Shown in pieces: positions 1 to 62,432 of a stretch of 62,432 nt of DNA. A program made the position numbers and the translations under genes. The DNA is from Methanobacteriota archaeon (GTDB taxonomy: Archaea > Thermoplasmatota > E2 > DHVEG-1): assembly GCA_963769885.1 (NCBI GenBank), contig CAVYNH010000003.1:1-62432 (forward strand). Reading direction: 5' to 3'. A model generated the notes under the pieces. That model was not told where the DNA came from, ran no database searches, and saw only the letters and a list, made by a program, of their open reading frames with translations. Position 1 is the stretch's first letter. Each line of letters begins with the position of its first letter.

Positions 1-1
1 G

Positions 2-277
2 GGCGGTGACGGTGTGTTGGCAGCCTGCGCAGGTCATGCCGTGGATGGTGAGGGTGGTGGTGGCGTGGTGGGTGCCGTAGCCGGCGGTGGTGATGGCGTG
101 TTCGATTTGGGGGAGGGTGATGGTGGTGGGGTCGTAGGTGATGGTGGCGGTGTGGGTGGCGAGGTTGACGGTGGCCTGTGTGACGCCGGGGAGTCTGGTG
201 AGGGTATCGGTGACGGTTTTTTGGCAGCCTGCGCAGGTCATGCCGGTGATGGTGAGGATCGCTTTTTTGGTGGTCAT
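2..277 (-). CDS. N-terminus (truncated by window edge) of a heavy-metal-associated protein with tandem HMA domains, probably a CopA-type P1B ATPase
   Basis: Manual translation of the minus strand (absent from the ORF track): MTTKKAILTITGMTCAGCQKTV...LTIHGMTCAGCQHTV, with two GMxCxxC motifs. Confidence 0.85.
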   Translation of the reverse strand, partial: MTTKKAILTITGMTCAGCQKTVTDTLTRLPGVTQATVNLATHTATITYDPTTITLPQIEHAITTAGYGTHHATTTLTIHGMTCAGCQHTVTA

Positions 278-415
278 GGTGGGTTGTTCCGTGTGGTTTT
301 TTGGGTGGTAGGGGTGTATTTGTTTTTATGGGTTTTGGGTGGGGTCTTGGGATAAATCTTTAAATAAGTCCTTGGCGATTTAAATTGTAAGAATAGGATT
401 TATTCTTGGGAAGGC

Positions 416-2173
416 ATGAAGATTATGCGGCGTGTGGTTTTGGGAAGTCTTGTGTGTGTGCTGGTGGTGTGTGCTGGGTTTTCGGCGGCTGCGGCGAGTC
501 CTCGGTCGTCGTCTCTGGTGAGTAGTACGCGGGATGGTGGGCGTGGTACGGAGGGGTGGATGCTGCAGTGGAGTCATGACTATGGTGGGGATGGTCATGC
601 GCAGTTGGCGCAGCCGGTCGGCGACCTCGACAAGGATGGGGTCAATGAGGTCGTGGTCGGCGGGTATGAGACGCAGGGGACGCTGCGTATCTTGTCGTAT
701 GTCGGGGGGACGTATGTGCAGGAGTTCTCGATGTCGCCGACGGGCGGGTCGTATAATTGTCCGTCGGGGGCGACGATCGTGGACCTGGATGGTGATGGGA
801 CGTTGGAGTTGGTCGTCTCGTGGGCGTACACGTCGAATGACGGGGTGTATGCGTACCATTGGGATGGGACGACGTTGACGACGCTGGATGAGTACCATGG
901 GACTGGCGTGAATTTCGTGTTTGATGTGTATTCGTGTGATTATAATGAGGACGGGAGTCCTGAGGTGCTGATTGCGAATGCGCCGTGGGGGGCGAGCCAG
1001 TGGTATGTGACCGGGCTGTTGTGGCAGAGTGGGCATTTCGTCCGGCAGGCTTCCTGGGCGTGCCCGAGCGGGAACGGGGGGGAGTGCCCGATCGTGTGGA
1101 GCGGGGACGTCGATAACGATGGGCATCCGGAGATCATCGCGGACATCTCGTATGGGACGTCATACACGTATGGGACGTGGGCGTTGAACTGGAATGCCGG
1201 GACGACGAGCTGGACCGGGGTGCCGGTCTGGACCGCCTATGGGTCGAACACGGTGTACGGGGACAGCGTCGGGGATATCGACGGTGATGGGACGCCGGAG
1301 ATCGGGATTGGGACGTACGGCGGGACGCCCACTGGGTATCTCTTCGAGTGGGACGGGAGCGCGTTCCAGAAGGTGTGGCAGCAGTCGTGGCCTGATGGGC
1401 AGCCGATCATCGAGGCGGTCGCGATCGGGGATGCGGATAATGATGGGCACAAGGAGTTCTGCGTCGGCGCCGGCCATGTGCATGTCATCGGCTGGGACGG
1501 CAGCCAGTACGTGGAGGAGGCGGTGTTCACGCAGCCGGCCGGGATGCTGGCGGGGATGAATATCGGGGACTTCGACACCGATGGTCACAATGAGGTGAAG
1601 GGCTGTGAGATCCTCAGCAACACCGGGTATGAGTTCATCTGGAAGTACGTGGATACGACGCCGCCGGTGACGACGTTCCATTGGGATGGGCAGCAGTTCT
1701 GGTTCACGGCGGTGGACAATGGGACTGGCGTGAACCACACTATGTACCGGGTGGATGCTGGGGAGTGGACCCTGTTTGCGTTCCCGGTTGCCTTCAATGA
1801 TTCGGGGGTTCACACGGTCTATTACTATTCCGTGGATCACGTTGGGAATGTTGAGACGACGAAGAGTTCGAGTATCTATATCGGCCCGAAGCTGCAGGTT
1901 GCGTTGAAGGGCGGCGTGGGGATCACGCTGGAAGTCGAGAACCTGGGGATCTCGGATCTAACGAACATACCGTGGAGCCTGTCGTTGAAGGGTGGGTTGA
2001 TCCTCAGCAAGCGGGAACCCACGGGCATGTTCTCGCTGCTGAAACCTGGGGTGAATGTGACGAAGAAGATCCTGGTGCTTGGGTTCGGGAAGTTCACTGC
2101 TTCGGCGTTGGTGAATGAGACCAGGCAGAATGCGACGGGAGCCGTGTTCCTCGTCTTCGTGAAGATGACGTAG
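416..2173 (+). CDS. Secreted FG-GAP/VCBS-repeat beta-propeller protein with Ig-like module and conserved C-terminal domain
   Basis: Signal-peptide-like N-terminus; repeated GD(L/I/V)DxDGxxE Ca-binding motifs; DTTPPVT Ig module. Confidence 0.85.
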   Translation: MKIMRRVVLGSLVCVLVVCAGFSAAAASPRSSSLVSSTRDGGRGTEGWMLQWSHDYGGDGHAQLAQPVGDLDKDGVNEVVVGGYETQGTLRILSYVGGTYVQEFSMSPTGGSYNCPSGATIVDLDGDGTLELVVSWAYTSNDGVYAYHWDGTTLTTLDEYHGTGVNFVFDVYSCDYNEDGSPEVLIANAPWGASQWYVTGLLWQSGHFVRQASWACPSGNGGECPIVWSGDVDNDGHPEIIADISYGTSYTYGTWALNWNAGTTSWTGVPVWTAYGSNTVYGDSVGDIDGDGTPEIGIGTYGGTPTGYLFEWDGSAFQKVWQQSWPDGQPIIEAVAIGDADNDGHKEFCVGAGHVHVIGWDGSQYVEEAVFTQPAGMLAGMNIGDFDTDGHNEVKGCEILSNTGYEFIWKYVDTTPPVTTFHWDGQQFWFTAVDNGTGVNHTMYRVDAGEWTLFAFPVAFNDSGVHTVYYYSVDHVGNVETTKSSSIYIGPKLQVALKGGVGITLEVENLGISDLTNIPWSLSLKGGLILSKREPTGMFSLLKPGVNVTKKILVLGFGKFTASALVNETRQNATGAVFLVFVKMT

Positions 2174-2231
2174 GGCTCCTCCCTCTTTCCTTCCTTTTTT
2201 CCTGATATGTTTGTATACATGAAAATATATA

Positions 2232-2738
2232 TCATTGAGGGGTGAGTCGCCGTCCGTAGTAGAGGTGGTTGTGGGTGTTGCCGTCGATCTCGCCGACCTC
2301 GGGGAGGCATCCCCATTGGGTGAACCCATGTTTTTCGAGGAGGCGGATGCTGCCGGCGTTCTTGTCCAGAATAATCGCGAGCATCGTCATGAGCCCAGCG
2401 GCCTGGGCCGCCTCGATCGCCGCTGTTAGGAGCAGGTTGCCGACGCCTTGGCGGCGGCTGTCCTCGCGGACGAATAGGCTGGCCTCCGCGGTACGGCGGA
2501 AGGCGTCGCGGCCGGGCCGGTACGGCTCGAGGCTGACGAAGCCGACGATCCGATCATCGTTGATGGCGACGAGCAGGGGGTATTGGCTGCGGGAATGGTT
2601 CCTGAACCACTTTTTCCGGTCATCAACCGTGACTTCGGTGAGATAACCGGTGGACATCCTGGTGCGGACCCCCTGGTTGAAGATCTCCACGAGTGCCGGG
2701 AGGTCCGGCGGGCGGGCGTGACGGATGCGGATGTCCAT
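2232..2738 (-). CDS. GNAT N-acetyltransferase (YncA/phosphinothricin acetyltransferase-like)
   Basis: RRQGVGxxLL acetyl-CoA motif; NAGSIRLLEKHGF. Confidence 0.9.
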   Translation of the reverse strand: MDIRIRHARPPDLPALVEIFNQGVRTRMSTGYLTEVTVDDRKKWFRNHSRSQYPLLVAINDDRIVGFVSLEPYRPGRDAFRRTAEASLFVREDSRRQGVGNLLLTAAIEAAQAAGLMTMLAIILDKNAGSIRLLEKHGFTQWGCLPEVGEIDGNTHNHLYYGRRLTPQ

Positions 2739-2832
2739 GAGATGAACACCTTGCGGGAAATACTTAAAGTTTCGGGAAAAAACTTCTTACAGAAGAAAAA
2801 AGATATATTCTCGTATGTCTTAACGGATATAT

Positions 2833-3285
2833 CTATAGGAAGAGGCGATAGACCGTAAGATTTTCACTCACGTACTCGTTGACGCCGTCGCCGGCCTTCA
2901 CCATCATTGTCACTGAATGCCCGAACATCGGCACGGCAGGGGCAGGAACGAGCGTCCATTCAAACGGCGCCTCAGTATCAACAAATTGCAGGACTCCATT
3001 CAGATACCATTCCGCTCGCTGAATACCGCCCACCGGGGTAATCATCATCGGGATCCCGCGCTTGAAATAATAATGCAAGAACAAGGGCACCGGCAGATCC
3101 ATCAGCTTCCGATCGTTCCAGTACACCCCGCCCGCAGGTACATACACAAAGGTCACCGGATCCTCCCCCGCAGCCGTTTGTTTCTGAACAGGCTGACTCC
3201 CCGCCATCGCCAGCGGTGCAAGCAGACACAGACAGATCACCAGCATTCCACCCATGCCGGCTCCATTCGACTTCCACGCAGCCAT
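2833..3285 (-). CDS. Small secreted protein consisting essentially of one Ig-like domain
   Basis: Hydrophobic N-terminal segment (LVICLCLLAPLAMA); EWYLNGVLQFVDTEAPFEWT; start chosen at ATG 3285. Confidence 0.65.
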   Translation of the reverse strand: MAAWKSNGAGMGGMLVICLCLLAPLAMAGSQPVQKQTAAGEDPVTFVYVPAGGVYWNDRKLMDLPVPLFLHYYFKRGIPMMITPVGGIQRAEWYLNGVLQFVDTEAPFEWTLVPAPAVPMFGHSVTMMVKAGDGVNEYVSENLTVYRLFL

Positions 3286-3466
3286 ACAAAACACTCCCAC
3301 CCTAAAGAAACACGCTTCATCTATATAGTTGTTCCGATAAAAACCCAATTCATAACAAAACCATCCTATTAATAAACCACTCTCCACACCAGCACACCCC
3401 AAGAACTAATCCCCGCCAATCCGGAAAAGAGTTATACCGACCACCCCCCATACCCCACCACCACCT

Positions 3467-5311
3467 ATGGACGTCCTCATCAAAGCCAGCGCCCTCTCCA
3501 AACGCTTCGAAGGCAAACCCCTCTTCGACAACGCCTCCTTCGAAATCCACCCCCACGACTGCATCGGCCTCCTCGGCCCCAACGGCACCGGCAAAACCAC
3601 CCTCTTCAACATCCTCCTCGGCACCGAACCACCCACCACCGGCGACCTCTGGCGCACCACCCCACTCACCATCCGCCTCCTCAGTCAAGTCGCCATCAGC
3701 CCCCACGACCACACCATCGCCGACTTCTTCACCCGCACCACACAGCCCACCGACATCCAACACCAAATCACCGCCCTCGAAACCAGACTCGACGACCCCA
3801 CCATCTACACCACCCCAGACTACCCCCGCCTCATCGACGAGCTCCACACCCTGCGCACCACCGCCGCCAAGACCGCCAGCACCATCCGCTGGGACGCCGC
3901 CCAACACCTCCTCACCGAAATCAGCCTCCCCAACCTCACCCTCACCCAACACATCGCCGAACTCTCCGGCGGCGAACGACAAAAAATCGCGCTCGCCAGC
4001 GTCCTCGCCAAACCAGACGACTGCGACCTCCTCCTCCTCGACGAACCCACGAACCACCTCGACATCGACACCATCGAATGGCTCGAACGCAAAATCGCGG
4101 ACCTCCCCACCTCCATCATCCTCATCTCCCACGACCGCTACCTCCTCGACGACCTCATCGACAGAGTCTTCGAAATCGATGCCGGCACCATCCAAACCTA
4201 CAACCAGACCTACGCCGAATACGAAGAAACCAAAACCTACCTCCAACACAGCAAACAACAAGCCTACGATCGCTACCGCCACGAACTGTCCCGCCAGAAA
4301 AAAGTCCTCGACACCCTCACCCGACGCAACAAATACGACCGACAAATCGCCAGCAAAATGAAACGCCTCGAAAAACTCCAAAAAATCGACAACCCCATCC
4401 TCAAATCCTACCTCCTCCGCTTCCACTTCAAAACCGTCTTCAAATCCGGAAAAAACGTCGCCGAAGCAACCCACCTCGCCAAAGCCTACCCCGGCCACCC
4501 CCTCTTCTCAGACCTCACCTTCGAGATCCTCGCCGGCCAGAAAATCGGCCTTATCGGCCCCAACGGCTGCGGCAAGACCACGCTCCTGCGCCTCCTTATC
4601 GGCGAAGAACCCCCAGACGCCGGCACCTTGCGGCTCAGCTCAGGCGTCCGCACCGGCTACTTCGACCAAGGACACCTCTCCCTCACCCTCGAAAACACCC
4701 TCATCCAAGAAGTCTGCCAGGACCACCCGGAGCTCTCAGAAAACGACGCCAAAGCCCTCCTCGGACAGTTCAACTTCAAAGGCACCATGGTCGACAACCT
4801 CGTCGGCCAGCTCTCCGGTGGCGAACGCGCACGGCTGGCAATCCTGCGCCTCATCATGCAGCCGTACAACCTCCTCGTTCTTGACGAGCCGACGAACCAT
4901 ATGGACATGCAGTCCAAACAGGCCATCGAGTCCGCACTAAACTCCTACAACGGGACCGTCATCGCGGTCTCCCACGACCGCCGGTTTCTTGACGCAGTCA
5001 CCGACACCATCTTCTTCATGGAGAACGGCACCCTGAAGACCTACAGCGGCAACTACACCAGCTTCCGCCAGCAACGCATCAAGGAACTCGCAGACTTCGA
5101 CGCGGCCCAACGCGCGATCCTCTCCGGCAGCACCAAATACGTCGTCCGCAAGAAGTTCACGATCTGGTCCATCAACACGAAGTACGCGGTCGGCGACGTC
5201 CTCTACATCGGGGACCACAACGAGAAGACCTACGAATGGGCGTTAAAGAACAAATTCCTCATCCCATACGACGAGTACGAACAACGGAAGAACGAGCAGA
5301 AGCCCGAATAG
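3467..5311 (+). CDS. ABC-F family ATP-binding protein
   Basis: Two NBDs (GPNGTGKT/GPNGCGKT, LSGGE x2, LDEPTNH x2) and no TM segments. Confidence 0.95.
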   Translation: MDVLIKASALSKRFEGKPLFDNASFEIHPHDCIGLLGPNGTGKTTLFNILLGTEPPTTGDLWRTTPLTIRLLSQVAISPHDHTIADFFTRTTQPTDIQHQITALETRLDDPTIYTTPDYPRLIDELHTLRTTAAKTASTIRWDAAQHLLTEISLPNLTLTQHIAELSGGERQKIALASVLAKPDDCDLLLLDEPTNHLDIDTIEWLERKIADLPTSIILISHDRYLLDDLIDRVFEIDAGTIQTYNQTYAEYEETKTYLQHSKQQAYDRYRHELSRQKKVLDTLTRRNKYDRQIASKMKRLEKLQKIDNPILKSYLLRFHFKTVFKSGKNVAEATHLAKAYPGHPLFSDLTFEILAGQKIGLIGPNGCGKTTLLRLLIGEEPPDAGTLRLSSGVRTGYFDQGHLSLTLENTLIQEVCQDHPELSENDAKALLGQFNFKGTMVDNLVGQLSGGERARLAILRLIMQPYNLLVLDEPTNHMDMQSKQAIESALNSYNGTVIAVSHDRRFLDAVTDTIFFMENGTLKTYSGNYTSFRQQRIKELADFDAAQRAILSGSTKYVVRKKFTIWSINTKYAVGDVLYIGDHNEKTYEWALKNKFLIPYDEYEQRKNEQKPE

Positions 5312-5364
5312 CCGACCGAGGCCTCCGCTGATACCCTCCTCAATACCGCTCAGTCAGATTTTTT

Positions 5365-8300
5365 TTATAGGATTTTGAGGACAGTCAGGGAGCACTCGTT
5401 CGTGTTCCCCGCGTTATCGTACGCGACCGCACGCAGCGTCCGCTTCCCAAAGGCCGGCGTCTCCCATGCGAGCTGGTAGTCCGGCCCGGTCGTGCACGTG
5501 GATTCGAGGACTCCGTTGACGTAGAGCTCGACGCGGTTCATCCCGGTCTCATGGTCAACAGCATGAACCACCACCGTGAGAGACCCGATGACGATAGTCC
5601 GGGACAGGGGCATGAGGGGAAGGCCGAAGAAGTACAGCATGTTCGCTTGGGGCGTGACTAGCAAGATACTCGGGGCAATGGTATCATTACTAACCGCTGC
5701 GGTGGTATTGTCTGTCGCCTCCTGGGATAAACTGTCCTCCACTTGCAGCTGGACTGTGTACAATCCGTGATGGTTGTAGACATGCTGCGGGTTCTGCTGA
5801 ACCGATGTGTTCCCATCACCAAAGTCCCAATGGTACGTATAAGGCGGTGTTCCGCCAGTGGCATTTCCTAAGAACCAGATCGTGACTCCGGCCATGCCGC
5901 TGTACGGCCCGCCGGCATCGGCTACCACAGCCGAAGGTGAAACGGCGATGTTTGTGGAGGTATTGGCGGTGGCACCGTCGTCATCGCAGACGACCAAAAT
6001 CACGTGGTACGTCTGGACATCGGTGTATGTGTGAGTGACGTGCTCTCCGTATCCGTGGGCGCCGTCTCCGAAGTCCCAGGACCAGTTCACCACGGTCCCA
6101 TCGACATCGGTCGAGGTGCTGTTGAGAAAGACGATGTCATTAACCTTGGGGTGTGCCGGCTCATAGGTGAACGAGGCGACCGGGGGGTCGTTCACGTCGG
6201 TTATCGTCACAAAGACCGTGGCGGTGTCAACCCCCCCTTGGTTGTCCGTAATTTGGTAGACGAAGGAGTCGGCGCCGTGGTAGTTCAGTTGGGGGGCGTA
6301 CCGGATGTACCCCGTCGTCGTGTTCACGGTCGTGGTCCCATGAGTCGGCGGGGTGACGACGGTCACGCTGCTGACGACGATCGTGCCGTCAGGGTCGTAA
6401 TCATTGGCGAGCACATTGATCCAGATTGGGGTGTCCTCGGGGGTGGTGGCGGTGTCGTTGACGGCGACGGGCGGTTGGTTGCTGGTGTTGATGACGGTGG
6501 CCGAGGTCATGTTGGGGAGGTAGTTGTGTTTGGTGACGGTGACATTCATGAAGCCGATGGTGGTGGGGGCGGGGGCGAAAACGGCGTCACCATTGGTGTT
6601 GGTGAGGCCGGTGAGGTAGACTTGGGTGCCTTTCCAGAGGCATACGAGGGCTTGGTTGACGGGGCTGCCGCTCTGGGCGACGTGGACGGTGAAGGAGGAG
6701 GAGCCGATGGGGAGGGTGGCAGGGTGGGTGACGGTGAGCGTGGCGGGGTTGGCGGTCCAGACGGGCATGGTGGGGTCGCCGAGGAGGTTGAAGGAGTAGA
6801 AGCAGTATTTTTCGACGCTGAAGAAGGGGGTGCCGTAGAGGTTTTTGGCCCAGCTGATCATCTCGCCGAGGGTGTATTTGCTGTTAGAGAAGAGGGCCTG
6901 CCACCAGTGGGTGTCGAGTTCGCCGGTATAGGCGCCGGGGTCGCCGGTGTTGTACCAGCCGTAGCCGGAGTCGCCGGTGAAGGAGACGGCGCATTTGTTG
7001 GCGTTGTAGATGACGAAGTGTTCGGCGATGTTGTCTTCGACGCTGTAGTCAAGGGGGTGGCAGCCGGCGGAGGCGATGTTGCAGAGGAGGTTGGTGTTGG
7101 TGAAGACGGAGTCGACTTCAGATGAGCTGAGGTCGGCGTAGTGGTTGATGTAGCCCATGCCGAGGACGTCTTCGTTGCTGTGGTCGTAGTGGTTGACGAG
7201 GTTCTGTCCGGCGTTGATGGCGGTGATGAATTTCGATTTGTGGGTCGGGGTGTATGATTGTGAGTCGTAGACGGTGGTGACCGTGAACTGGGGGTGGGGG
7301 ATATAGCTGGTGTTGATAGCAGCCTTCATGGTCTCGGCGGGTGATGATTCGTCGAGGTCCATTCCTTGGAGGAGTGCTTTAGTGGCGAAGTTGGTCATGG
7401 GGGGGCTGCATTGGTAGGCGATGGTCTTGTTCGTGAAGAGGGCGACTTGGGCGCTGCCGGTGGCGGAGACTCTGCCGACGTTGACTTCGCTGGTCCAGTC
7501 GTCGTCGTAGTCGTTGTAGTACTGGTCGCCGATGACGGATTCGGGGTTGCCGTTTATGGTGTAGGTCTTGGTCATGCCGGGGACGTTTGCGATCTCGCCG
7601 CCGAGGAGGAAGAAGCTACAGGCCCAGGAGGTGTAGGCGTCGATGATGAAGGCGCGGATCTTGGCTTGGTTGGTGGAGCCGGTGTAGTTGGCGTAGATCT
7701 GTGTGGCGGTGTAGATGAGGGTGCGGATGCCGCGTTTGGTGTTCCAGGTGGCGAGGGTCTGCCAGGCGGTGGCATCGCTGGTGGAGGTGATGATGACGGT
7801 GCTGTAGGGACCGCCGGGGGGGATGGTGGGGGTTCGATGAGGCGGTGCTTGTTGGAGGTTGACTTGGTCGGGGTTGATGACGAGGCGTTGGAGGTCCTGG
7901 GTTTTTTGTTCTCGTTGAAGGCTGGTGGTCGCAGCAGGGAGGAGGTCGCCGACGGTGCGTCCTGAGGTGCCTGTTAGTTGGAATGTCAGTGAGGTGGTGG
8001 CGGTGATAGTATTGGTTGCGGGGTTGTATTGGAGGGGGGTGAAGAGGATGTAGGCGAGGCCTTGGCCGTAGAGGTCGCTTTGGCCGAGGAGTCGGATGGG
8101 GGATTCGGGGTAGGGGTTGGTGGTGGAGAGGGTGGGGGCGGTGAAGGCCTGGTGGGTGGGGTCGTTGGTGGTTTGTGGTGGGAGGTTGCCGGGGATGGTG
8201 TAGGTGCCGGGGAGTTGTTGGGTGGCGGCGTGGAGGATTTGGATGGCGGTGATGGTGGTGGTGGCGGGGACGGCGATGATGAGGTCTTGGGCAGGGAGGT

Positions 8301-8532
8301 GCGGGGCGCCGGGTTCGCTGGTGGTGGTGGCGTCGGGGAAGGTGAGGATGTCGTAGCCGTCGATGGTGGTGGTGGTGAGGGTGGTGGGGTCGAAGGTGAG
8401 GGTGAGTGGTTGTGGGGTGTAGGTTTTTTGGGTGGGTCGTGCCGGGGTGATGGTGGTGGTAAGCATGAGGGTGCAGAGGAGGATGGCGATGGCCTTCATG
8501 GAGTTGGAGAAATGGTAGGAGTGCGTGGTCAT
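5365..8532 (-). CDS. C25 (gingipain-family) cysteine peptidase with propeptide, Ig/cadherin-like and two PKD domains
   Basis: Propeptide EPGAPHLP; VNHYDHS...SAGCH catalytic His/Cys; FNLLGDPTM; WDFGDG x2. Confidence 0.9.
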   Translation of the reverse strand: MTTHSYHFSNSMKAIAILLCTLMLTTTITPARPTQKTYTPQPLTLTFDPTTLTTTTIDGYDILTFPDATTTSEPGAPHLPAQDLIIAVPATTTITAIQILHAATQQLPGTYTIPGNLPPQTTNDPTHQAFTAPTLSTTNPYPESPIRLLGQSDLYGQGLAYILFTPLQYNPATNTITATTSLTFQLTGTSGRTVGDLLPAATTSLQREQKTQDLQRLVINPDQVNLQQAPPHRTPTIPPGGPYSTVIITSTSDATAWQTLATWNTKRGIRTLIYTATQIYANYTGSTNQAKIRAFIIDAYTSWACSFFLLGGEIANVPGMTKTYTINGNPESVIGDQYYNDYDDDWTSEVNVGRVSATGSAQVALFTNKTIAYQCSPPMTNFATKALLQGMDLDESSPAETMKAAINTSYIPHPQFTVTTVYDSQSYTPTHKSKFITAINAGQNLVNHYDHSNEDVLGMGYINHYADLSSSEVDSVFTNTNLLCNIASAGCHPLDYSVEDNIAEHFVIYNANKCAVSFTGDSGYGWYNTGDPGAYTGELDTHWWQALFSNSKYTLGEMISWAKNLYGTPFFSVEKYCFYSFNLLGDPTMPVWTANPATLTVTHPATLPIGSSSFTVHVAQSGSPVNQALVCLWKGTQVYLTGLTNTNGDAVFAPAPTTIGFMNVTVTKHNYLPNMTSATVINTSNQPPVAVNDTATTPEDTPIWINVLANDYDPDGTIVVSSVTVVTPPTHGTTTVNTTTGYIRYAPQLNYHGADSFVYQITDNQGGVDTATVFVTITDVNDPPVASFTYEPAHPKVNDIVFLNSTSTDVDGTVVNWSWDFGDGAHGYGEHVTHTYTDVQTYHVILVVCDDDGATANTSTNIAVSPSAVVADAGGPYSGMAGVTIWFLGNATGGTPPYTYHWDFGDGNTSVQQNPQHVYNHHGLYTVQLQVEDSLSQEATDNTTAAVSNDTIAPSILLVTPQANMLYFFGLPLMPLSRTIVIGSLTVVVHAVDHETGMNRVELYVNGVLESTCTTGPDYQLAWETPAFGKRTLRAVAYDNAGNTNECSLTVLKIL

Positions 8533-8728
8533 GGTTTTATACCTCAAGGTAGGGTCTTTTTTGTCTCTTTTTTCCCCCTTTGTGTGTTGTATGGGGCTTC
8601 CCCTTTAAAAATGGTATGGTTCGGGGGGAGGGTGGAGCAGAGCTTGGAAGGCATATAGGTATATATATTTCGTATCGAGACGAACAATGAACACGATACC
8701 GGGAAAAATAGTGTTATTTTTGTTTTAA

Positions 8729-9670: not shown

Positions 9671-9786
9671 CAGGGAACGCTCAGGGGAGACGTAGGAAAG
9701 GGCTGGTATTTTAATGCATTGCCGGTTCGCATCCTTTTTTAAAGCGATGGCGGTTACTGGGTATACCTACTAGGGGGTTTCGAGAG

Positions 9787-52157: not shown

Positions 52158-54356
52158 CTATCCCAGGTAGTACTCTGGTGGGTACGGGTCTGGTTTGAGT
52201 CCCTTGCGCTCGCGGATTTTGTGGACGACGTCAGCCATGAGGTGTCGTGGGAGTGGAACGAATCCGCGGTTCTCGGTGTTCCACAGGACGCGGCCGCCGG
52301 TTGCGCTTCTGATGGCTGAGGCGAACCCGAACATCTCGGCGACGGGGGCGATGGCGTCGATGTTGACGAGGTCGCCTTCCGTGATCATGTCTTTGACCTC
52401 GGCGCGCCGGCTGTTGAGCTCGCGGCTGGCCTCGCCCATGAGCTCCTGCGGGGTGCTGATGAAGACCCGCTGGATTGGCTCGAGGAGGGTTGGGTCGGAG
52501 CTGACGATGGCGCCGTTGATCGCGTTGCGTGCCGCGGGGATGACCTGAGCGGGGCCACGGTGGATCGCGTCTTCGTGCAGTTTCGCGTCGGTGAGCTTGA
52601 CGAGGACGCCTTGGCAGGGTTCGTTGGTGATCGGGCCGCTGCGCATGACCTCGTCGAAGGCCTCCTTGATGAGGTCCCTGGTCTCGAAGAGGTACTGGAT
52701 CCCTTTGGTCGTGTCGGTGATCATGTTGAGGCCACGGATGCCGAAGACGCCTTTGGCGACGTCTTTTTCCATGCCGAGGTCCGTGAGGATCTTGACCGCC
52801 TCTTTCTTGAATTTCTTGACGTTATCCGGGATCTCGTTGTTGTAGAGGGCCTTGATGACTCCCTCGGGGAGAGGTTCGACGGTGACGTAGAAGCGGTTGT
52901 GCTTGTTGGGGGATTTTCCTTCGAACTCGTGTGGGGTTGGTTTGCTGACGCATTCTCGGTAGACCACGATGGGTTCGCTGCAGACGATGTCGAGCTTGTG
53001 GTCGTTGCGTATTCTGTATTCGGTGATCTCGAGGTGGAGTTCGCCCATGCCGCTCATGAGGTTCTCGCCGGTCTCTTGGTTGATCTGGACTTGGATGCTG
53101 GGGTCCGCCTTGGAAATCATACGGAGGACTTCAACAAGCCTGGGGAGGTCCTTGGTGTTCTTGGCTTCGACGGCGACGGTGACGACGGGCTCGGAGATAT
53201 GGACGATGCGTTCGAACGGCTCGACGTCAGGGCCGTCGACAATGGTGCAGCCGGCGATCGCGTCGCGGACGCCGGTGATCGCGGCGATGTTGCCTGCGCT
53301 GACCCACTCGACGGGGATACGGTCTGCGCCGACCATGACGTTGACCTGCTGGACCCGGTTCTTGTTGGGCATGCCGGCGACGTAGACTTCTTGGCCGCGG
53401 ACGATCTTGCCGCCGTACATGCGACCGACCGCGACTTCTCCGGCGTGCGGGTCCAGGATAATCTTTGTAATCATCAGTCCCAGTGGTCCATTCTCATCGC
53501 AGTTGACCATGGCTTTGCCGAGGTGGCTTTCCAGGTCGCCGTGCCAGATGTGTGGGATACGGTATTTCTGGGCGATATCCGGGGACGGCAGATGCGTGAT
53601 GACCATGTTGAGGATGACTTCGTGAATTGGGGATCTCTTCGCAAGGCTTTTTTGGTCGTTGTTCTTGCAGCACTCGTAGATGTCCTTGAAGCTGAGGCCG
53701 GATTGTTTCATGTACGGTGCGGAAATCGCCCAGTTGTTGAAGGCGGAGCCGAAGGCGACGGAGCCGTCTTCTACTTTGACGCTCCATTTGTCTTTGAATT
53801 CCTCGGGCATGAAGCGGGCGAGCAGTTCGTTGACTTTGGCGATGATCTTGACGAACCGCTCTTGCATCTCTTCCGGGGAGAGTCGCAGTTCGTTGATCAG
53901 GCGGTCGACTTTGTTGATGAAGAGGATGGGTTTGACCTTTTCTCGGAGCGCCTGGCGGATGACGGTCTCGGTCTGGGGCATGGCTCCTTCGACCGCGCAG
54001 ACGAGGATGATGCAGCCGTCGACGGCGCGCATGGCTCTGGTGACGTCGCCGCCGAAGTCAACGTGACCCGGGGTGTCGATGAGGTTGATGAGGTACAGCT
54101 TGTCCTTGTAGGTGTGGACCATGGAGGCTGATGCGGCGTTGATGGTGATGCCGCGGGCCTGCTCCTGCTCGTCGTAGTCGAGGACGAGCTGTTTGCCGGC
54201 GAGCTCTTCGCTCATCATGCCGCAGCCCGCGATGAGGTTATCTGAGAACGTGGTTTTCCCATGGTCGATGTGGGCTGCGATGCCGATGTTTCGGATGTAA
54301 GGCAGCTTGTTCATGAGGTCTTTGGCTTTGGCGATGTTGTCTTCTTTTCGTCCCAT
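52158..54356 (-). CDS. fusA: Translation elongation factor aEF-2
   Basis: AHIDHGKT, RGITI, DTPGH, NKVD; diphthamide loop HEDAIHRG. Confidence 0.98.
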   Translation of the reverse strand: MGRKEDNIAKAKDLMNKLPYIRNIGIAAHIDHGKTTFSDNLIAGCGMMSEELAGKQLVLDYDEQEQARGITINAASASMVHTYKDKLYLINLIDTPGHVDFGGDVTRAMRAVDGCIILVCAVEGAMPQTETVIRQALREKVKPILFINKVDRLINELRLSPEEMQERFVKIIAKVNELLARFMPEEFKDKWSVKVEDGSVAFGSAFNNWAISAPYMKQSGLSFKDIYECCKNNDQKSLAKRSPIHEVILNMVITHLPSPDIAQKYRIPHIWHGDLESHLGKAMVNCDENGPLGLMITKIILDPHAGEVAVGRMYGGKIVRGQEVYVAGMPNKNRVQQVNVMVGADRIPVEWVSAGNIAAITGVRDAIAGCTIVDGPDVEPFERIVHISEPVVTVAVEAKNTKDLPRLVEVLRMISKADPSIQVQINQETGENLMSGMGELHLEITEYRIRNDHKLDIVCSEPIVVYRECVSKPTPHEFEGKSPNKHNRFYVTVEPLPEGVIKALYNNEIPDNVKKFKKEAVKILTDLGMEKDVAKGVFGIRGLNMITDTTKGIQYLFETRDLIKEAFDEVMRSGPITNEPCQGVLVKLTDAKLHEDAIHRGPAQVIPAARNAINGAIVSSDPTLLEPIQRVFISTPQELMGEASRELNSRRAEVKDMITEGDLVNIDAIAPVAEMFGFASAIRSATGGRVLWNTENRGFVPLPRHLMADVVHKIRERKGLKPDPYPPEYYLG

Positions 54357-54458
54357 AGGGATGTACACTCCAATATGAGAAACTTATGTTTTTCTTGTTT
54401 TTTGGGGAGTTAGGTGTGAACTAGGGTGTAGGATTAAGATGAGTGTGCTGGGGTATAT

Positions 54459-55049
54459 TTACCGTGCGGCCTTGGCGATACGTTCGACGTCGTTTTTCTT
54501 GGCGATGCTGAAGCTGGCGGGGTCGTTCTTCGCCGCTTTCATGAGTTCGTCGGCGAGACAGGCTTCAATGCGTTTGCGGTTCTTGTGGCTGGCGTTCATG
54601 CTGCCGGTGCAGATGTTGCGGATGGCGATGTCGAGCCTGCGCATGGGGGCGACGTCGACGGCCTTGGGGACCATGATGCCGCCGAACCGCAGTCTGGTGG
54701 TCTCTTCCTTGGGGGCGGCGTTCTGGATGGCGTCGATGAGGACTTGCAGGGGGTTGGTCTTGGCGCGCTTGTCGATGATGTCGAAGGCGTCACGGACGAC
54801 CCGGTAGGCTTTGGTCTTCTGGCCGGTGTAGACCTCGGTCTTCATGAGGTTGTTGATGAGCCGCTCGATGATGGGGGTGCTTGCCTTGCCGAAGTTCTTG
54901 TTGGCGTAGGGGGCGCCGAGGAAGAAGTCCTTGTATTCGAGGTTGATGTAGCGCTGCAGGCCGCGGTCTTCGATCTTCAGCTGGCTCATGTCGTATTTGG
55001 CGAGCATGGGGAAGAAGCTGCTGGCGACGGCTGTGGTGGTGTCTGCCAT
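54459..55049 (-). CDS. rps7: 30S ribosomal protein S7
   Basis: NPLQVLIDAIQNAAP, VDVAPMRR, ERIAKAAR. Confidence 0.97.
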   Translation of the reverse strand: MADTTTAVASSFFPMLAKYDMSQLKIEDRGLQRYINLEYKDFFLGAPYANKNFGKASTPIIERLINNLMKTEVYTGQKTKAYRVVRDAFDIIDKRAKTNPLQVLIDAIQNAAPKEETTRLRFGGIMVPKAVDVAPMRRLDIAIRNICTGSMNASHKNRKRIEACLADELMKAAKNDPASFSIAKKNDVERIAKAAR

Positions 55050-55053
55050 GGTG

Positions 55054-55485
55054 TTACCGCCTCATGGGTTTCTCGACCTTTCCTTTGACGAGTTGGTCGA
55101 GGCTGACGTCGTTGACTTTGATGACTTTGAAGCGGACGCCGGGGATGTCGCCGTAGGATCGGCCCATGCGGCCGCCGATGCCTTCGACGACGACTTCGTC
55201 GTGTTCGTCGATGAAGCCGATGGCGTGGTTGCCGGGGGCGAAGGCGGTGATTTGCCGTCCGTTTTTGATGAGTTGGATCTTGACGCATTTGCGGATGGCG
55301 GAGTTGGGCTGTTTGGCTTCGACGCCGACTTTTTCGATGACGATGCCTTTGGCTTGGGGCACGCCCCCGAGGGGGTCTGCCTTCTCCTTGAGGTGGAGGA
55401 CGCGGCGTTTGTAGTACCGGTCACTCCAGCGGAGATGTTTGCGGGTTTTCTTGATTTTGCGTGCGGCGTTGAGTCCTTTGCCCAT
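55054..55485 (-). CDS. rps12: 30S ribosomal protein S12
   Basis: [22 protein letters not shown]. Confidence 0.98.
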
Positions 55486-55830
55486 TCGGTCACCTTTATC
55501 GTGTGTACTCTGAGTTAGTGAGTGGTTGAGGGTAGGCAGAATACCGTTTTACTATTTAAAGCTATTTCGTGGGTTCCTCCTAGAGACGGTCGTGTGAGTC
55601 TGGCGTGGATATTGACGGTACGGTGGTCCTAAGGTTTGCGGGGGAGTTTCAATACATCGAGCAAATTTTTTTATCTCTATCAATAAATATTTAAACGGAA
55701 TAGGATTATGAGGAGGAAGTCTGGAATTCGGGAGGTACACCATTCGATGCAAATGGCGAATCAACAAGTGGCGACAAAGAGAAGAATCTTAATTAACACC
55801 TTCTTATATAACTACTATAGGCGATATATA

Positions 55831-57974: not shown

Positions 57975-58712
57975 ATGAACGAGCATCCGACCCCATCGCA
58001 CGGCCCGCCGCGGCCACACGCCGTCACCACCACCCAGCCCCTCGACCTCATCATCCAGTCCGGCATCCCCGAACTCGACGCCCTCCACGGCGGCTTCCAC
58101 GCCGCCACCATCACCCTTATCGACGGCAACAGCAGCCTCATCAGCGACCTCCCCAACCAGCTCTGCGCCCAGACCTACCAGACCTTCCACGCCCCCAGCC
58201 TCTACATCGACGGCGGCATGGCCGCCAACCCCTACCGCATCGCCCACCACGCCAAAACCCTGCACCTCGACCCCAGCGACGTCCTCACCTCCGTCAGCAT
58301 CGCCCGCGCCTTCACCCTCCACCAGCTCACCAGCCTCATCCACGACCTCCTCGAGCCCACCATCCAGCAGCACCAGCCCCGCACCCTCATCATCGGCCGC
58401 TTCCCCAGCCTCTACCTCGACCCCGACGTCCCCAGCGATGAGGCGACCACGCTGCTCACCACCACTCTGGAGGTCCTCCAACGGCTCACCAGCCAGTACC
58501 GCCTCATCACCGTCCTGACCAACAAGGACCGCACCGTCCTGCCCAGCCAGCGCGGCCTCCGAGACATCCTCTACCGCACCGCCACCGACGTCATCCGGAT
58601 CAAGGACATGGACGACTGCACCTACCTCGACAGCCTCAACCGCGGCAGGACCACGACCATCATCCACGCCGCCAGCGGGCAGCTGCACCTTGACGCCTTC
58701 ACCGGAGGCTAA
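57975..58712 (+). CDS. RadA/RecA-fold protein lacking Walker A (PolB2-associated)
   Basis: SGIPELDALHGGF, LYIDGG, ARAFTLHQL; no GKT. Confidence 0.8.
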   Translation: MNEHPTPSHGPPRPHAVTTTQPLDLIIQSGIPELDALHGGFHAATITLIDGNSSLISDLPNQLCAQTYQTFHAPSLYIDGGMAANPYRIAHHAKTLHLDPSDVLTSVSIARAFTLHQLTSLIHDLLEPTIQQHQPRTLIIGRFPSLYLDPDVPSDEATTLLTTTLEVLQRLTSQYRLITVLTNKDRTVLPSQRGLRDILYRTATDVIRIKDMDDCTYLDSLNRGRTTTIIHAASGQLHLDAFTGG

Positions 58713-58717
58713 CAAGC

Positions 58718-58972
58718 ATGGGCCGCACCGTCCCCACCTTCCGCGCCGTGATCGAGTCCTTTGGCTGGGAATGGCACGACTTCAAACGCGCGCTGCGCGA
58801 CGTCGACCAGGAGGCCTTCGAGGAGCTCCTCAACCACGCCCGCCGCCACGCCGCCGCCGGCACCAACACCACCAACCCCAACCCCTTCGAGCCCATCGTC
58901 CTCTCCATCCTCATCGAACACGAAAAACTCCTCCGTGAGCTCCGAGACCATGCTGCGAGGAAACGTCCTTGA
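58718..58972 (+). CDS. Small helical protein of the PolB2 operon
   Basis: MGRTVPTFR...WHDFKRALR..DQEAFEEL; overlaps the polymerase start. Confidence 0.82.
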   Translation: MGRTVPTFRAVIESFGWEWHDFKRALRDVDQEAFEELLNHARRHAAAGTNTTNPNPFEPIVLSILIEHEKLLRELRDHAARKRP

Positions 58973-61214
58973 CGTCCACCCTGACTACCACCGCAACCTC
59001 ATGGTCACCTGGCTTTCCGACCATGGCAGGGCCGTCCGTATCGAAGACCCCTACGAGCCCCGCTTCCTCGTCGCCGCCCCCCGCACCGACCTCTACCAGA
59101 TCGCCGCCCGGCTTCACGACAACCCCCACGTCAAAACCCTGGACTTCACCGACGCCCGACTCGCCCTGGGCTCCACCGACCGCACCCCGGTCCTCGCGGT
59201 GACCCCCCGGACCCTGCAGTCCTTCCACGGCCTCGCCAGCCTCGTCGACTCCTGGGGCAAGTACCACCGCTACCGCCTCTTCGACATCGACCTCCGATTC
59301 CCCACCCGGTACCTCGAAGACCACCGGATCTTCAGCAACGCACAGGTCGCCTGGGACGGCAAACACTTCCAGACCACCGACGACCCCTGGGCCATCGACT
59401 ACCCCGCCCCCGGCTACACCAGCACCACCCTGGAGATCACCCCGGACCAGACCTCAACAATCCCCTCCTACGCCGCCCCCATCCGCAGCATCCGAATCGG
59501 CGACGACACCATCCACGAGCCCACCGAGGCCGACACCATCCAGTCCGCCGCCCGCGGCCTCCACGGCCTCGACCCCGACATCCTCTACACCAAAGGCGGC
59601 GACACCTTCTGGTTCTCCTACCTCTCTCACCGCAGCCAAGCAAACGGCATCAGCATCCACCTCGGCCGCGACCACTGGGAAAAAACCGGCGACGTCCGCC
59701 CCAGCAAACCCGGCAAATCCTACCTCAGCTACGGCCAGATCCTGTACCGCCCCGCCTTCTACACCCTCCACGGCCGCATCCACATCGACACCGCCTCCTC
59801 CTTCTTCTACGGGGAAGCCAGCCTCCACGGCATGATCGACGTCTCCCGCACCAGCAACATCCCCCTCCAGCTCGTCAGCCGCCTCGGCCCCGGCACCGCC
59901 ATCAGCCAAATCCAGATCAACACCGCCCGCCGCCTCGGCTACCACATCCCCTGGAAAAAAAACCGCCCCGAAGACTGGAAGACCGCGCTGGACCTCCTCA
60001 ACACCGACCGCGGCGGCCTCATGCTCGAACCACACGTCGGCCTCCACACCAACGTCTGGGAACTCGACTACGCCAGCCTCTACCCCAACATCATGCTCCT
60101 CCACAACATCAGCCCCGAAACTCTCCTCTGCAGCTGTTGCCCCGACTCCCCCCACCGCGTCCCCCAACTCGGCTACCACATCTGCCACCAAAAAGAAGGC
60201 CTCATCCCCACCATCCTCCGACCCATCCTCCACAGAAGATTCTGCTACAAAGCACGCAGCAGACACCCCGGCTACGACCACGACCGCTACACCCAACTCC
60301 AAAAAGCCTGGAAATGGGTCCTCCTCGTCAGCTTCGGCTACACCGGCTACCGCAACGCCAGATTCGGCCGCATCGAATGCCACGAAAGCATCACCGCCTA
60401 CAGCCGCGACGCCCTCCTCACCGCCAAAGAAACCGCAGAACACGCCGGCTACACCGTCCTCCACGGCATCGTCGACAGCCTCTGGATCACCCCCACCCAC
60501 CCCACCATGACCATCCCCACCCTCGCCCACACCATCAGCGACCGCACCGGCATCCGCATGGCCATCGACGGCCGCTTCCGCTGGATCGTCTTCCTCCCCT
60601 GCGCCAACCTCCCCATCGGCGCCCTCACCCACTACTACGGCGTCTTCGACACCGGCGACCTCAAAGTCCGCGGCGTGGAACTCCGCCAACGCGACACCCC
60701 ACCCTTCCTCAGAACCGTCCAACACGACATCATCACCACCCTCGCCGCCGCCACCACCCCCAAAGACTTCCACGCCCGACTCCCCGCCGCCATCCGCATC
60801 CTCCACGACGCCGCCACCCGGCTCCACCACGGCACCGTCCCCACCTTAGACCTCATCGTCACCAGCCGCGTCACCATGACCCCCGACCAATACCGCACCA
60901 ACACCCTCGTCAAAGCCGCCCTCCTCCAACTCCAAGACCTCGACATCACCGTCGAACCCGGACAGACCATCCGCTACCTCGTCACCCACGAAACCGCCCG
61001 GTCACATCAGGACCGCGTCCGCGTCATCGAAGCCCTCACCCCCACCGACCACCCCGACCCCCACTACTACCTCCGCCAGCTCGCCACCTGCGGCGAAAGC
61101 CTCCTCAGCCCCTTCGGCTACACCACCGAAACCCTCCTCGACATCCTCACCCGCCCCGCCCCCGCCCCAGAACCGCCCATAAAACACCACGAGCACCCCT
61201 TATCTATAGATTAA
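58950..61214 (+). CDS. polB2: Family B DNA polymerase, PolB2/Dpo2 group
   Basis: DYASLYP motif A; KWVLLVSFGY motif B; HGIVDS in place of YGDTDS; degenerate exonuclease. Confidence 0.88.
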   Translation: MLRGNVLDVHPDYHRNLMVTWLSDHGRAVRIEDPYEPRFLVAAPRTDLYQIAARLHDNPHVKTLDFTDARLALGSTDRTPVLAVTPRTLQSFHGLASLVDSWGKYHRYRLFDIDLRFPTRYLEDHRIFSNAQVAWDGKHFQTTDDPWAIDYPAPGYTSTTLEITPDQTSTIPSYAAPIRSIRIGDDTIHEPTEADTIQSAARGLHGLDPDILYTKGGDTFWFSYLSHRSQANGISIHLGRDHWEKTGDVRPSKPGKSYLSYGQILYRPAFYTLHGRIHIDTASSFFYGEASLHGMIDVSRTSNIPLQLVSRLGPGTAISQIQINTARRLGYHIPWKKNRPEDWKTALDLLNTDRGGLMLEPHVGLHTNVWELDYASLYPNIMLLHNISPETLLCSCCPDSPHRVPQLGYHICHQKEGLIPTILRPILHRRFCYKARSRHPGYDHDRYTQLQKAWKWVLLVSFGYTGYRNARFGRIECHESITAYSRDALLTAKETAEHAGYTVLHGIVDSLWITPTHPTMTIPTLAHTISDRTGIRMAIDGRFRWIVFLPCANLPIGALTHYYGVFDTGDLKVRGVELRQRDTPPFLRTVQHDIITTLAAATTPKDFHARLPAAIRILHDAATRLHHGTVPTLDLIVTSRVTMTPDQYRTNTLVKAALLQLQDLDITVEPGQTIRYLVTHETARSHQDRVRVIEALTPTDHPDPHYYLRQLATCGESLLSPFGYTTETLLDILTRPAPAPEPPIKHHEHPLSID

Positions 61215-61255
61215 TATAGCCGACCCTGAATTAACCTCAAATAAGGGGAAACTCC

Positions 61256-62432
61256 ATGAAGACGCAGCTCACCAGACGCACCCTCGCCGTCAGCATCATC
61301 CTAGTCCTTTGCAGCACCACACTCCTCCCGCCAAGCCTCGGCAGAACCGCAGCCCAACCGAAATCCATCACCACCACAGCCCAGTTCTCACCACCGACCA
61401 CGACCCTCGAAAACGGACGCCTCCTCATCACCGTCCCCCAGGCCACCGGGATCACCTCCGGCTTCGGAAAACCCCAACTCCCAGAAAACATCCTAACCTA
61501 CGAACTCCCCAGAGGCACCCACATCACCGCCGTGACCTTCACCCCCGGACCCACCAAGACCCTCCAGGCATCAGCCCTCGTCCAGCCCGTCCCCACCCCA
61601 ACTAAAGTCGGCGACGAGCTCCTCCCCCAGACCGACCTCATGGACCAAACCATCTACGGCTCCACAGACCCCTACCCCACAACCTGGGGCTGGTACACCG
61701 TCGGCGCCGGACTCAACCGCACCAACACCCGCGTCCTCCACCTCACCCTCCACTGCACACCCATCCACTACCTCCCAGCCGCCAACACGATCCAATATAC
61801 CACTACAATCACGGTATCCGTCCAATACGAGACGACGCCCGTGAAGCCCGCGCCCGCTATTGCCTACGACCTAGTCATCATCACCCCAGCGGAGTACTCA
61901 GAAGCCATCGGACCGCTCGTTGAACACAAGAACACACACGGCATACCAACCCAAATAATCACCCTTGATGCCATCGCCGCAGGCTACCCCGGCAGAGACC
62001 TCAGCGAACAAATCAAGTACTCCATCAAGGATGCAATCGAGACCTGGGGCACCCAATACGTCCTTCTGGTCGGGGACATGAAGAAACTGCCGATCCGCAC
62101 GACCTACGCCTCCTGGTGGGAGGAGAACGTCCTCTCAGACCTGTACTACGCGGATATCTACGATGCATCGGAGAACTTCTGCAGCTGGGATAAGAACCAC
62201 AACAACCGGTTCGGGGAGACCGACCGGAACGGCAACGACCTGGACGGCGTCGACCTCTACCCCGACGTCAACGTCGGCAGGATCGCCTGCACCAACATCA
62301 GCCAGGTGCAAACCGTCGTCGCCAAGATTATCGCCTATGAGACGCAAACGCACGGGCAGGCATGGTTCAAGAAAATCGTGCTCGCCGGCGGAGACACCTT
62401 CACGCCCCGACTGGGCGCACCGTTCAATGTCT
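61256..62432 (+). CDS. C25 gingipain-family peptidase (truncated by window end)
   Basis: Manual translation MKTQLTRR signal; GKPQLP, YDLVII, SDLYYADIY, PDVNVGRI, GGDTF. Confidence 0.88.
   Translation, partial: MKTQLTRRTLAVSIILVLCSTTLLPPSLGRTAAQPKSITTTAQFSPPTTTLENGRLLITVPQATGITSGFGKPQLPENILTYELPRGTHITAVTFTPGPTKTLQASALVQPVPTPTKVGDELLPQTDLMDQTIYGSTDPYPTTWGWYTVGAGLNRTNTRVLHLTLHCTPIHYLPAANTIQYTTTITVSVQYETTPVKPAPAIAYDLVIITPAEYSEAIGPLVEHKNTHGIPTQIITLDAIAAGYPGRDLSEQIKYSIKDAIETWGTQYVLLVGDMKKLPIRTTYASWWEENVLSDLYYADIYDASENFCSWDKNHNNRFGETDRNGNDLDGVDLYPDVNVGRIACTNISQVQTVVAKIIAYETQTHGQAWFKKIVLAGGDTFTPRLGAPFNV

Follow-up and report, generated by a model that had tools for sequence, protein, structure and literature searches.

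Kilobase-scale blocks of opposing G+T and C+A strand skew in the genome of an uncultured Thermoplasmatota archaeon

Introduction

The contig CAVYNH010000003.1, a stretch of 62,432 nucleotides hereafter called the window, raises the question of why the two strands of one archaeal chromosome should exchange composition every few kilobases, each being rich in G and T along one block and rich in C and A along another. The window is the entire contig C3 of a seven-contig, 2.09-Mb genome (labelled G000) of an uncultured Thermoplasmatota archaeon, whose nearest records are metagenome-assembled genomes (MAGs) from wetland, lake and marine sediment, SM1-50 among them. An earlier note, written from the letters of the window, had described eleven such domains and attributed them to a localised, strand-specific mutational process acting independently of gene direction.

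We expressed the skew of a gene as S3, the keto skew (G+T-A-C) of its coding strand at third codon positions, with S1 and S2 as the counterparts for first and second positions, and called skew domains with a hidden Markov model (HMM) on third-codon and intergenic sites. Because skewed DNA has long open reading frames (ORFs) on both strands, a three-class periodic Markov gene caller was trained; over the whole genome it returned 1921 genes (87% coding). Gene calls were checked with Pfam, and RNA genes were found via Rfam. In the window, Pfam confirmed the strand of the genes for HMA, FG-GAP, ABC-F, peptidase C25, metallophosphoesterase, PadR, rhomboid, signal-peptide peptidase, ThiC, DP1, DP2, MCM, EF-2, S7, S12, RadB-like, PolB, ABC permease/ATPase and hydrolase proteins, and the rival antisense ORFs there gave no Pfam matches.

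Extent of the skew in the window and the genome

GC skew in the window reaches up to +/-0.5 per 1 kb, with AT skew opposite in sign, and 0.70 in the 300-nt window 8101-8400. The hand counts of the earlier note were reproduced (54 of 60 bases G+T at 8401-8460; 49 of 60 C+A at 3901-3960) and its eleven domains hold: the five described as G/T-rich contain 61-68% G+T and the six described as C/A-rich 28-40%, the window as a whole having 49%. The HMM recovers the same domains. DP2 (the large subunit of polymerase D) and MCM, both on the plus strand, use opposite codon sets as had been claimed: 20 DP2 codons from position 45962 have A or C at 20 of 20 third positions, 20 MCM codons from 49860 have G or T at 19 of 20, and their third-position skews are -0.76 versus +0.70. 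The divergent HMA and FG-GAP genes do lie within one G/T domain.

An assembly or sequencing artefact has next to no probability as the source of this pattern. Blemishes of the assembly would speak for it (DP2 probably contains a one-nucleotide indel, and contig C1 a 9.7-kb fold-back), but ORFs with strong Pfam matches cross skewed DNA and other species share the pattern at the same genes. The region is also visible in short-read data, namely Logan contigs of public runs: pieces from run X4, possibly the window's source sample, are 100% identical to it, and runs X1 and X3 hold a strain about 2.5-6% divergent that keeps the gene order except for a 2-kb indel. None of the public runs listed as containing the sequence is an RNA run.

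Skewed HMM states occupy 43% of the 2.09-Mb genome. Merging gives 502 blocks with a median length of 1.5 kb (90th percentile 4 kb, longest 8.2 kb), each a plateau that stands at about 0.55-0.6 for neutral sites and is sharply bounded on either side. Genome-wide, 25% of 1-kb windows have |GC skew| >0.3, and GC skew is correlated with AT skew at r=-0.78 (r=+0.78 for TA skew). The standard deviation (SD) of (G+T-A-C) in 500-nt windows is 0.215, against a binomial expectation of 0.045 and 0.05-0.08 in unskewed relatives, so the variance is far above chance. A bistable state is unsupported, given that 100-codon windows show a broad skew distribution with merely a shallow dip.

That this is a classical replication skew from one or a few origins, fragmented by rearrangements, is very unlikely. 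The keto/amino axis and the strand-specific codon dialects do resemble a leading/lagging asymmetry of the Borrelia type, and a family-conserved C/A-to-G/T switch beside DP2 and MCM has the polarity of an origin. However, polarity flips 161 times from C/A to G/T and 162 times from G/T to C/A (323 flips in 2.09 Mb), and 25-kb bins on contigs of up to 785 kb scatter about zero with no replichore-scale trend, which excludes a classical replication skew and upholds the earlier claim that a single origin fails to explain the domains. What the local mean over 25 kb does follow, negatively, is gene-strand bias. An inversion flips gene and skew jointly and cannot yield a reversed gene, that is, one whose coding strand is the G/T-rich one, and the Cdc6 region (C6:260 kb) does not stand out from the rest. 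In the window, the plus strand switches from C/A to G/T between about 47.5 and 49.5 kb (HMM-neutral 47504-49522), the switch ending at the signal recognition particle (SRP) RNA gene. An origin at this place was considered and rejected: the spacer of about 400 nt upstream of MCM is the SRP RNA gene, and in G014, a related genus, 4.4 kb of neutral DNA separates the DP2 and MCM skew blocks.

The earlier note had proposed a search of the switch points for motifs; neither motif nor repeat was seen at the block borders inspected. A self-megablast of the genome gave 156 high-scoring pairs of at least 400 bp and at least 80% identity; those listed represent one insertion sequence (IS) family, the fold-back on C1 and a few paralogue pairs, and the window blocks (holding, e.g., DP2, MCM and EF-2) are not among the matches listed. 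Mobile DNA is affected too, as seen in an integrated element beside tRNA-His (C7:166693-178977), where the terminase gene has S3 +0.66 and its neighbours -0.5 to -0.6.

A property of the DNA strand

At four-fold degenerate sites, genes with S3 < -0.7 contain A, C, G and T at.08,.84,.045 and.034, and genes with S3 > 0.5 at.04,.11,.72 and.12, which is the mirror image; neutral genes have.20/.31/.28/.20. The skew is greatest at third codon positions, and gene-level S3 correlates with S1 (r=0.74) and S2 (r=0.39), with slopes on S3 of 0.23 and 0.11; amino-acid usage is shifted too. Intergenic skew tracks that of its flanks (r=0.76, slope 0.42). The skew is thus a property of the DNA strand and not of codon selection, as the earlier note had maintained, since intergenic DNA and first and second positions are skewed and the two gene classes are mirror images. 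When third-position and intergenic skew are computed, as that note had suggested, the pattern turns out to be genome-wide.

Translational selection for two codon dialects deserves, on these data, hardly any credence. In its favour, third positions are the most affected, and C- and A-ending codons form Watson-Crick pairs with G34 and U34 tRNAs. However, it would leave the skew of intergenic DNA and of first and second codon positions aside, the minority class is the exact complement of the majority and includes essential genes, and the dialect changes in the middle of the peptidase C25, DP2 and PLD genes. The bases on either side of a site make little difference, P(C) lying at 0.70-0.83 whatever the context, which makes a motif-specific enzyme unlikely.

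The skew rises steadily with G+C at third positions (GC3): mean |S3| is 0.08-0.10 at GC3 <0.55 and 0.53 at GC3 >0.85. Genes with GC3<0.55, unskewed genome-wide, are probably recent imports; they look like DNA not yet exposed to the bias, or not subject to it.

Orientation relative to genes

Gene direction strongly biases the polarity of the skew without dictating it. Genome-wide, the C/A-rich strand is the coding strand for 82% of skewed bases, and the genes of at least 150 amino acids divide into 682 whose coding strand is C/A-rich, 224 in which it is G/T-rich and 480 neutral ones. The mean coding-strand S3 is -0.218, i.e., the non-template strand is not enriched in G+T. Among blocks of at least 800 nt, 215 of 353 hold co-oriented genes only. 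Along the C/A-rich strand, 42% of blocks have their 5′ end no more than 100 nt from a co-oriented start codon, where random placement gives 8%; for a 3′ end at a co-oriented stop, the corresponding figures are 30% and 9%. In a metagene average, skew jumps at the start codon, from about -0.1 to -0.3, and then fades along the gene from -0.33 to -0.16. Where two skewed genes diverge, the sign flips midway through the spacer that separates them. Independence of gene direction was therefore an overstatement, although real exceptions such as MCM exist, and the further assertion that transcription cannot explain the domains is not supported, as both the block ends and the metagene step follow genes. 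The possibility raised by the same note as fatal to its proposal, that third-position skew would track the coding strand, is seen in 682 genes, against 224 with the reverse and 480 neutral ones.

Reversed genes are enriched beside strongly skewed opposite-strand genes (52% versus 18-28%), and the adjoining opposite-strand skewed gene is found equally on their 5′ and 3′ sides. Real genes of this class include MCM, several tRNA synthetases, RtcB and a DRG GTPase. Co-oriented and reversed genes both occur in the window, whose blocks and genes are as follows, each block being given with the strand that is C/A-rich:

1-2137, block, minus (plus strand G/T-rich); HMM domains 1-1036 and 1651-2137
2-277, minus, HMA gene (Pfam HMA), S3 -0.87
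416-2173, plus, FG-GAP gene (Pfam FG-GAP_3), S3 +0.48, reversed, divergent from HMA
2896-5284, block, plus; begins about 570 nt upstream of the ABC-F gene, within ORF 2833-3402 (minus)
3467-5311, plus, ABC-F ATPase gene, S3 -0.73
6424-9665, block, minus; covers the 5′ two-thirds of the peptidase C25/PKD gene and the metallophosphoesterase gene
5365-8547, minus, peptidase C25/PKD gene, 3′ third neutral
8729-9670, minus, metallophosphoesterase gene
10348-12803, block, plus; methyltransferase, then convergent ABC permease and ATPase
10527-11063, plus, methyltransferase gene, S3 -0.63
11384-11896, minus, ABC permease gene, S3 +0.48, reversed
11897-12640, minus, ABC ATPase gene, S3 +0.44, reversed
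12806-25886, long neutral stretch with secreted peptidase genes, G+C 43-57%, among the unskewed, lower-GC3 parts of the genome
25889-26549, short block, plus; inside the alpha/beta-hydrolase gene 25781-26890 (minus; S3 +0.33, reversed)
26970-27514, short block, minus; PadR regulator gene 26983-27564 (minus; S3 -0.63)
35629-35700, tRNA-Cys gene, just before the next block
35722-36461, block, plus; only the initial 740 nt of the LTD/PLD gene 35730-38138 (plus)
38602-41416, block, minus; ThiC, signal-peptide peptidase and the 3′ end of the convergent rhomboid gene
38117-39082, plus, rhomboid gene, S3 +0.33
39079-39996, minus, signal-peptide peptidase gene, S3 -0.71
40177-41457, minus, ThiC gene, S3 -0.80
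44120-47501, block, plus; takes in the PQQ/PKD gene over its 3′ half and reaches 2.1 kb into DP2
45380-48815, plus, DP2 gene, S3 -0.76 in the N-terminal part, 3′ part neutral to G/T-rich
49186-49501, plus, SRP (7S) RNA gene (Rfam RF01857, 201.7 bits), between DP2 and MCM
49523-55533, block, minus; MCM (plus), then a convergent operon on the minus strand
49566-51668, plus, MCM gene, S3 +0.70, reversed
51704-55485, minus, the convergent operon: S12 55054-55485, S7 54459-55049, EF-2 52158-54368 and an ORF 51704-52060, S3 -0.42 to -0.72
58016-62026, block, plus; RadB-like, PolB and peptidase C25 genes, all plus
57975-58712, plus, RadB-like gene
58761-61214, plus, family-B DNA polymerase gene, S3 -0.75
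61256-62431, plus, peptidase C25 gene

The PadR block has a polarity opposite to that of its downstream neighbour gene on the same strand.

Conservation among relatives

Only a few genera, all of one family, show the trait. The SD of keto skew in 500-nt windows, 0.215 in the genome of the window, is 0.184 in G001 (same genus), 0.168 in G014 and 0.137 in G015; it lies at 0.09-0.14 in G005, G009, G013, G016 and G017 and at 0.05-0.08 in most other sampled genomes (0.105 in G024). In most of these low-SD genomes GC and AT skews are positively correlated, which is the usual purine loading of coding strands. The unskewed relatives are AT-rich, and the comparison suggests that the rise of G+C in the family from about 30% to 54% may have gone along with the strand-asymmetric bias.

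One conserved case is the DP1-DP2-SRP RNA-MCM locus. Across the family, DP2 is followed by a small ORF, then by a spacer that keeps its size and then by MCM, the SRP RNA gene itself having been identified in this window only. The N-terminal part of DP2 is C/A-rich and MCM is G/T-rich in G000, G001, G014, G005, G015 and G017, and at the same loci AT-rich genomes show A (.63-.65 of four-fold sites in DP2) and T (up to.71 in MCM) in place of C and G. Among 55 species with an MCM of at least 70% identity, S3 is >0.2 in 25 and < -0.2 in none. Across orthologues, S3 of G000 correlates with that of G001 at r=0.89 and with that of most other skewed genera at 0.2-0.6 (0.89 for G017, from 8 pairs), and syntenic genes in G014 can show the opposite polarity. 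Positional conservation among related MAGs, which the earlier note had raised as a test, is accordingly strong within the genus and only partial between genera: polarity is heritable over genus-level time, labile beyond it and fixed at a few loci. As a side observation at this locus, inserts of 1.2-1.5 kb, possibly inteins, split the catalytic part of DP2 in G014 (L078, 15978-17215) and G005 (L075, 9558-11062).

Comparison with known systems

In vertebrate mitochondria the H strand is G+T-rich and the L strand A+C-rich, with ND6 reversed, in one polarity per 16-kb molecule, and the asymmetry is put down to the long time that the H strand spends single-stranded while the molecule replicates. 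Our archaeon shares with them the amino/keto axis, a similar strength, sense strands that are mostly A+C-rich with a minority of mirror genes, and an effect on proteins. The difference is that here polarity flips every few kilobases in a 2-Mb chromosome, following genes, in plateaus with no gradient.

Transcription-associated asymmetry, a topic discussed in PMC12999951, is seen as deamination of the non-template strand in E. coli and as a coding-strand G+T excess in mammalian genes. The skew described here is likewise mostly gene-oriented, starts near the 5′ end, fades along the gene and lies on the same amino/keto axis. It has, however, the opposite sign, is many times stronger and seems to extend past transcription units, and about 18% of the skewed DNA is reversed. 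In the Borrelia burgdorferi type, codon usage is strand-specific and switches at origin and terminus only; both systems contain two mirror codon dialects per genome from a DNA-level strand bias, but this archaeon has no replichore pattern.

The sign is not without precedent among archaea. In Haloferax volcanii, GC skew at third positions and in non-coding DNA is opposed to gene-strand bias (Paravel et al. 2026, PMC12999951), which gives C the same lead over G as seen here, both in non-coding DNA and at the third positions of coding strands; there, the skew was read from GC-skew curves cumulated over the genome. That 2026 survey of skews in archaea, which does not mention Thermoplasmatota, argues that archaea are largely without strand-specific mutation or repair (PMC12999951). 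The strong strand-directed bias found here contrasts with archaea described as having little such capacity.

GRINS, reported in 2021 as duplicated regions (>500 bp, sharing >80% identity with a second region of their own cluster) with ties to gene conversion (PMC8256042), are the closest description. They too have intense coupled GC and TA skews, G+T versus C+A, with abrupt sign changes within kilobases and inside genes; third positions are the most strongly affected, proteins shift between Gly/Val/Cys/Trp and Pro/Thr/His/Gln, and no mechanism is known (PMC8256042). In the present genome the mean absolute GC and TA skews likewise exceed 0.15 and are positively correlated, but the blocks lack the repeat of >500 bp at >80% identity by which GRINS are defined. 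Instead, about 500 blocks of single-copy housekeeping DNA make up 43% of an archaeal genome, with an 82% gene-orientation bias.

What could generate the blocks

The reading that we favour, tentatively and at a little under an even chance, is a strand-asymmetric amino-to-keto substitution bias, by damage or repair, loosely tied to transcription units and with spill-over. Co-orientation in about four-fifths of the affected DNA, together with blocks that tend to start close to where genes start and to stop no later than genes do, argues for such a loose coupling. Within a block, one strand would lose the amino bases A and C and become G/T-rich, its partner becoming C/A-rich; in this GC-rich genome, C then takes up as much as 84% of the partner's four-fold sites. 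Changes of the deamination type (C to T, A to G) might accumulate on the transcribed (template) strand, or else the sense strand might be preferentially protected, or be the template for repair synthesis. The effect would spill up to a few kilobases into neighbouring DNA, opposite-strand genes included. We infer from sequence comparison that the composition reflects loss of amino bases from one strand on top of each genome's own G+C pressure. The strand-specific mutational process of the earlier note is thus partly borne out: the composition fits a loss of A and C from one strand, and it is at the level of inference that we place the driver in mutation or repair rather than in a fixation bias, with transcription setting the polarity.

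Several observations weigh against such a substitution bias coupled to transcription. The template strand is the G/T-rich one, contrary to the classical signature with a G/T-rich exposed non-template strand. Blocks containing reversed genes only number 36, and 18 of 20 random, strongly reversed genes from other contigs have Pfam support on the called strand. In the ribosomal-protein cluster at C4:271.9-288.9 kb, long, highly expressed and entirely on the plus strand, with no opposing gene within, S3 swings from -0.8 to +0.73 (-0.80, -0.63, -0.44, -0.35, about 0, -0.5 to -0.7, then +0.2 to +0.73). Syntenic genes differ in polarity between genera; L4-L23-L2, for instance, are reversed in G014 (+0.44 to +0.55) where G000 has -0.35 to -0.63. 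Skew is present 150-300 nt before start codons and at least 300 nt beyond stop codons. Neutral DNA flanks the rRNA operon, which is transcribed more than any other unit, and strength is not ranked by expected expression, as DP2, PolB and ThiC exceed EF-2 and S7.

Some other drivers were tried and rejected. In front of tRNA genes, G and T tend to predominate on the sense strand whichever gene is there. Promoter strength as the driver fails, as the rRNA operon flanks are neutral and protein genes with neutral neighbours show no upstream reversal. Read-through from S12-S7-EF-2 is not the cause of the MCM reversal: MCM is equally reversed in G014, where the operon is not adjacent, and in G005 EF-2 is neutral yet MCM has +0.54. 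Seeding by hydrophobic proteins was dismissed, reversed genes making up 17% of multi-span membrane proteins versus 13% of others (r=0.15). Loss of an obvious repair gene is excluded as the cause: NucS/EndoMS, endonuclease V and UDG occur in skewed (G000, G001, G015, G017) and unskewed (G008, G012) genomes alike. The exonuclease domain model of PolB scores weakly in all relatives and below threshold in G000, from which we draw no reading; both family-B DNA polymerases of G000 (58761-61214, plus; C6:605-608 kb) are present, with weak Pfam matches.

The flips within the co-directional ribosomal-protein cluster, the blocks that span oppositely oriented genes and the change of polarity between genera while gene order is unchanged speak for another explanation, which we consider improbable without dismissing it: DNA synthesis or recombination, acting locally and without regard to transcription, would leave one strand exposed in single-stranded form, for instance at recurrent breaks that are resected, at long fork stalls, or where replication starts in a dispersed or recombination-dependent way. 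A correlation with gene orientation would then arise indirectly only, e.g., through head-on conflicts exposing the template strand; fork stalling of this kind would match the observed sign. The kilobase scale resembles typical lengths of resection or repair tracts. This explanation is hard to reconcile, however, with the strong orientation bias and the block starts at gene starts, with plateaus whose edges are similar at both ends and have no arms decaying from a centre, and with inspected borders bare of motif or repeat.

The other reading that we would keep as a minority view, of much the same low standing, is a fixation bias acting on keto versus amino bases per strand, either strand-asymmetric biased gene conversion (e.g., between polyploid genome copies) or selection on RNA or DNA composition. 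At the same loci the keto-rich strand gained T in G005 and G in G000, for which a "keto target" is an easier account than two transition types alone; skew increases with GC3, as in GC-biased conversion; and the closest bacterial phenomenon, GRINS, is tied to gene conversion. On the other hand, the blocks are not repeats and have no visible conversion partner within one genome copy, we know of no conversion bias that distinguishes strands, and selection on mRNA fails for mirror-image housekeeping genes and for intergenic skew. As for substitution data, strain differences in the MCM block (unpolarised, among the 40 listed of 772 sites) are near balance, 11 toward keto versus 13 toward amino, and indicate no direction, and the 15 private substitutions of the seven IS copies (about 710 bp, 98-100% identity) are too few for these copies to serve as mutation reporters.

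Returning to the substitution bias coupled loosely to transcription units, we regard it as an even call that a strand-directed process of mutation or repair, so far undescribed and working on the scale of transcription units, arose in a few genera of one Thermoplasmatota family or escaped control there. It would rewrite protein composition and make mirror-image genes wherever its polarity is reversed.

Implications

The strand asymmetry is of mitochondrial strength, arranged in kilobase blocks, in an archaeon. If mutational, it would represent an archaeal asymmetry of damage or repair that has so far been unknown, and a natural system for probing transcription-coupled processes on DNA; if it arises at fixation, it would amount to biased conversion that can tell the strands apart. 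In either case, large shifts of G+C within a family can accompany strand-asymmetric bias. Such genomes also violate the assumptions of gene finders, through long shadow ORFs on the opposite strand, of origin finders based on GC skew and of composition-based binning, and predictors of expression and of horizontal gene transfer from codon usage are likewise misled.

Other features of the assembly and the window

On contig C1, positions 1-9682 are an inverted copy, 98.9% identical, of 9767-19446. A partial thermosome match lies at the contig's first bases and a full-length thermosome gene extends just beyond the outer end of the repeat; the fold-back (C1:1-19446) may be an assembly artefact.

The reading frame of DP2 shifts once near 46476-46540, being frame 2 until about 46530 and frame 0 from about 46476 on, and at base 46538 the related X1 strain has one base absent. 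The break is probably a one-nucleotide indel in the present assembly, or else a strain-specific frameshift. Between DP1 and DP2, the gene of a PQQ beta-propeller/PKD surface protein (43289-45308) is missing from the X1/X3 strain, which has 25 other bases instead; a recent insertion or deletion has thus taken place between the two polymerase D genes.

Finally, the window is dense in genes for secreted protease- or adhesin-like proteins (5365-8547, 14327-15664, 18343-20706, 27767-31420 and 61256-62431), with three peptidases C25, one C10, and PKD, FG-GAP and Ig-like domains. This set fits a protein-degrading lifestyle in sediment.

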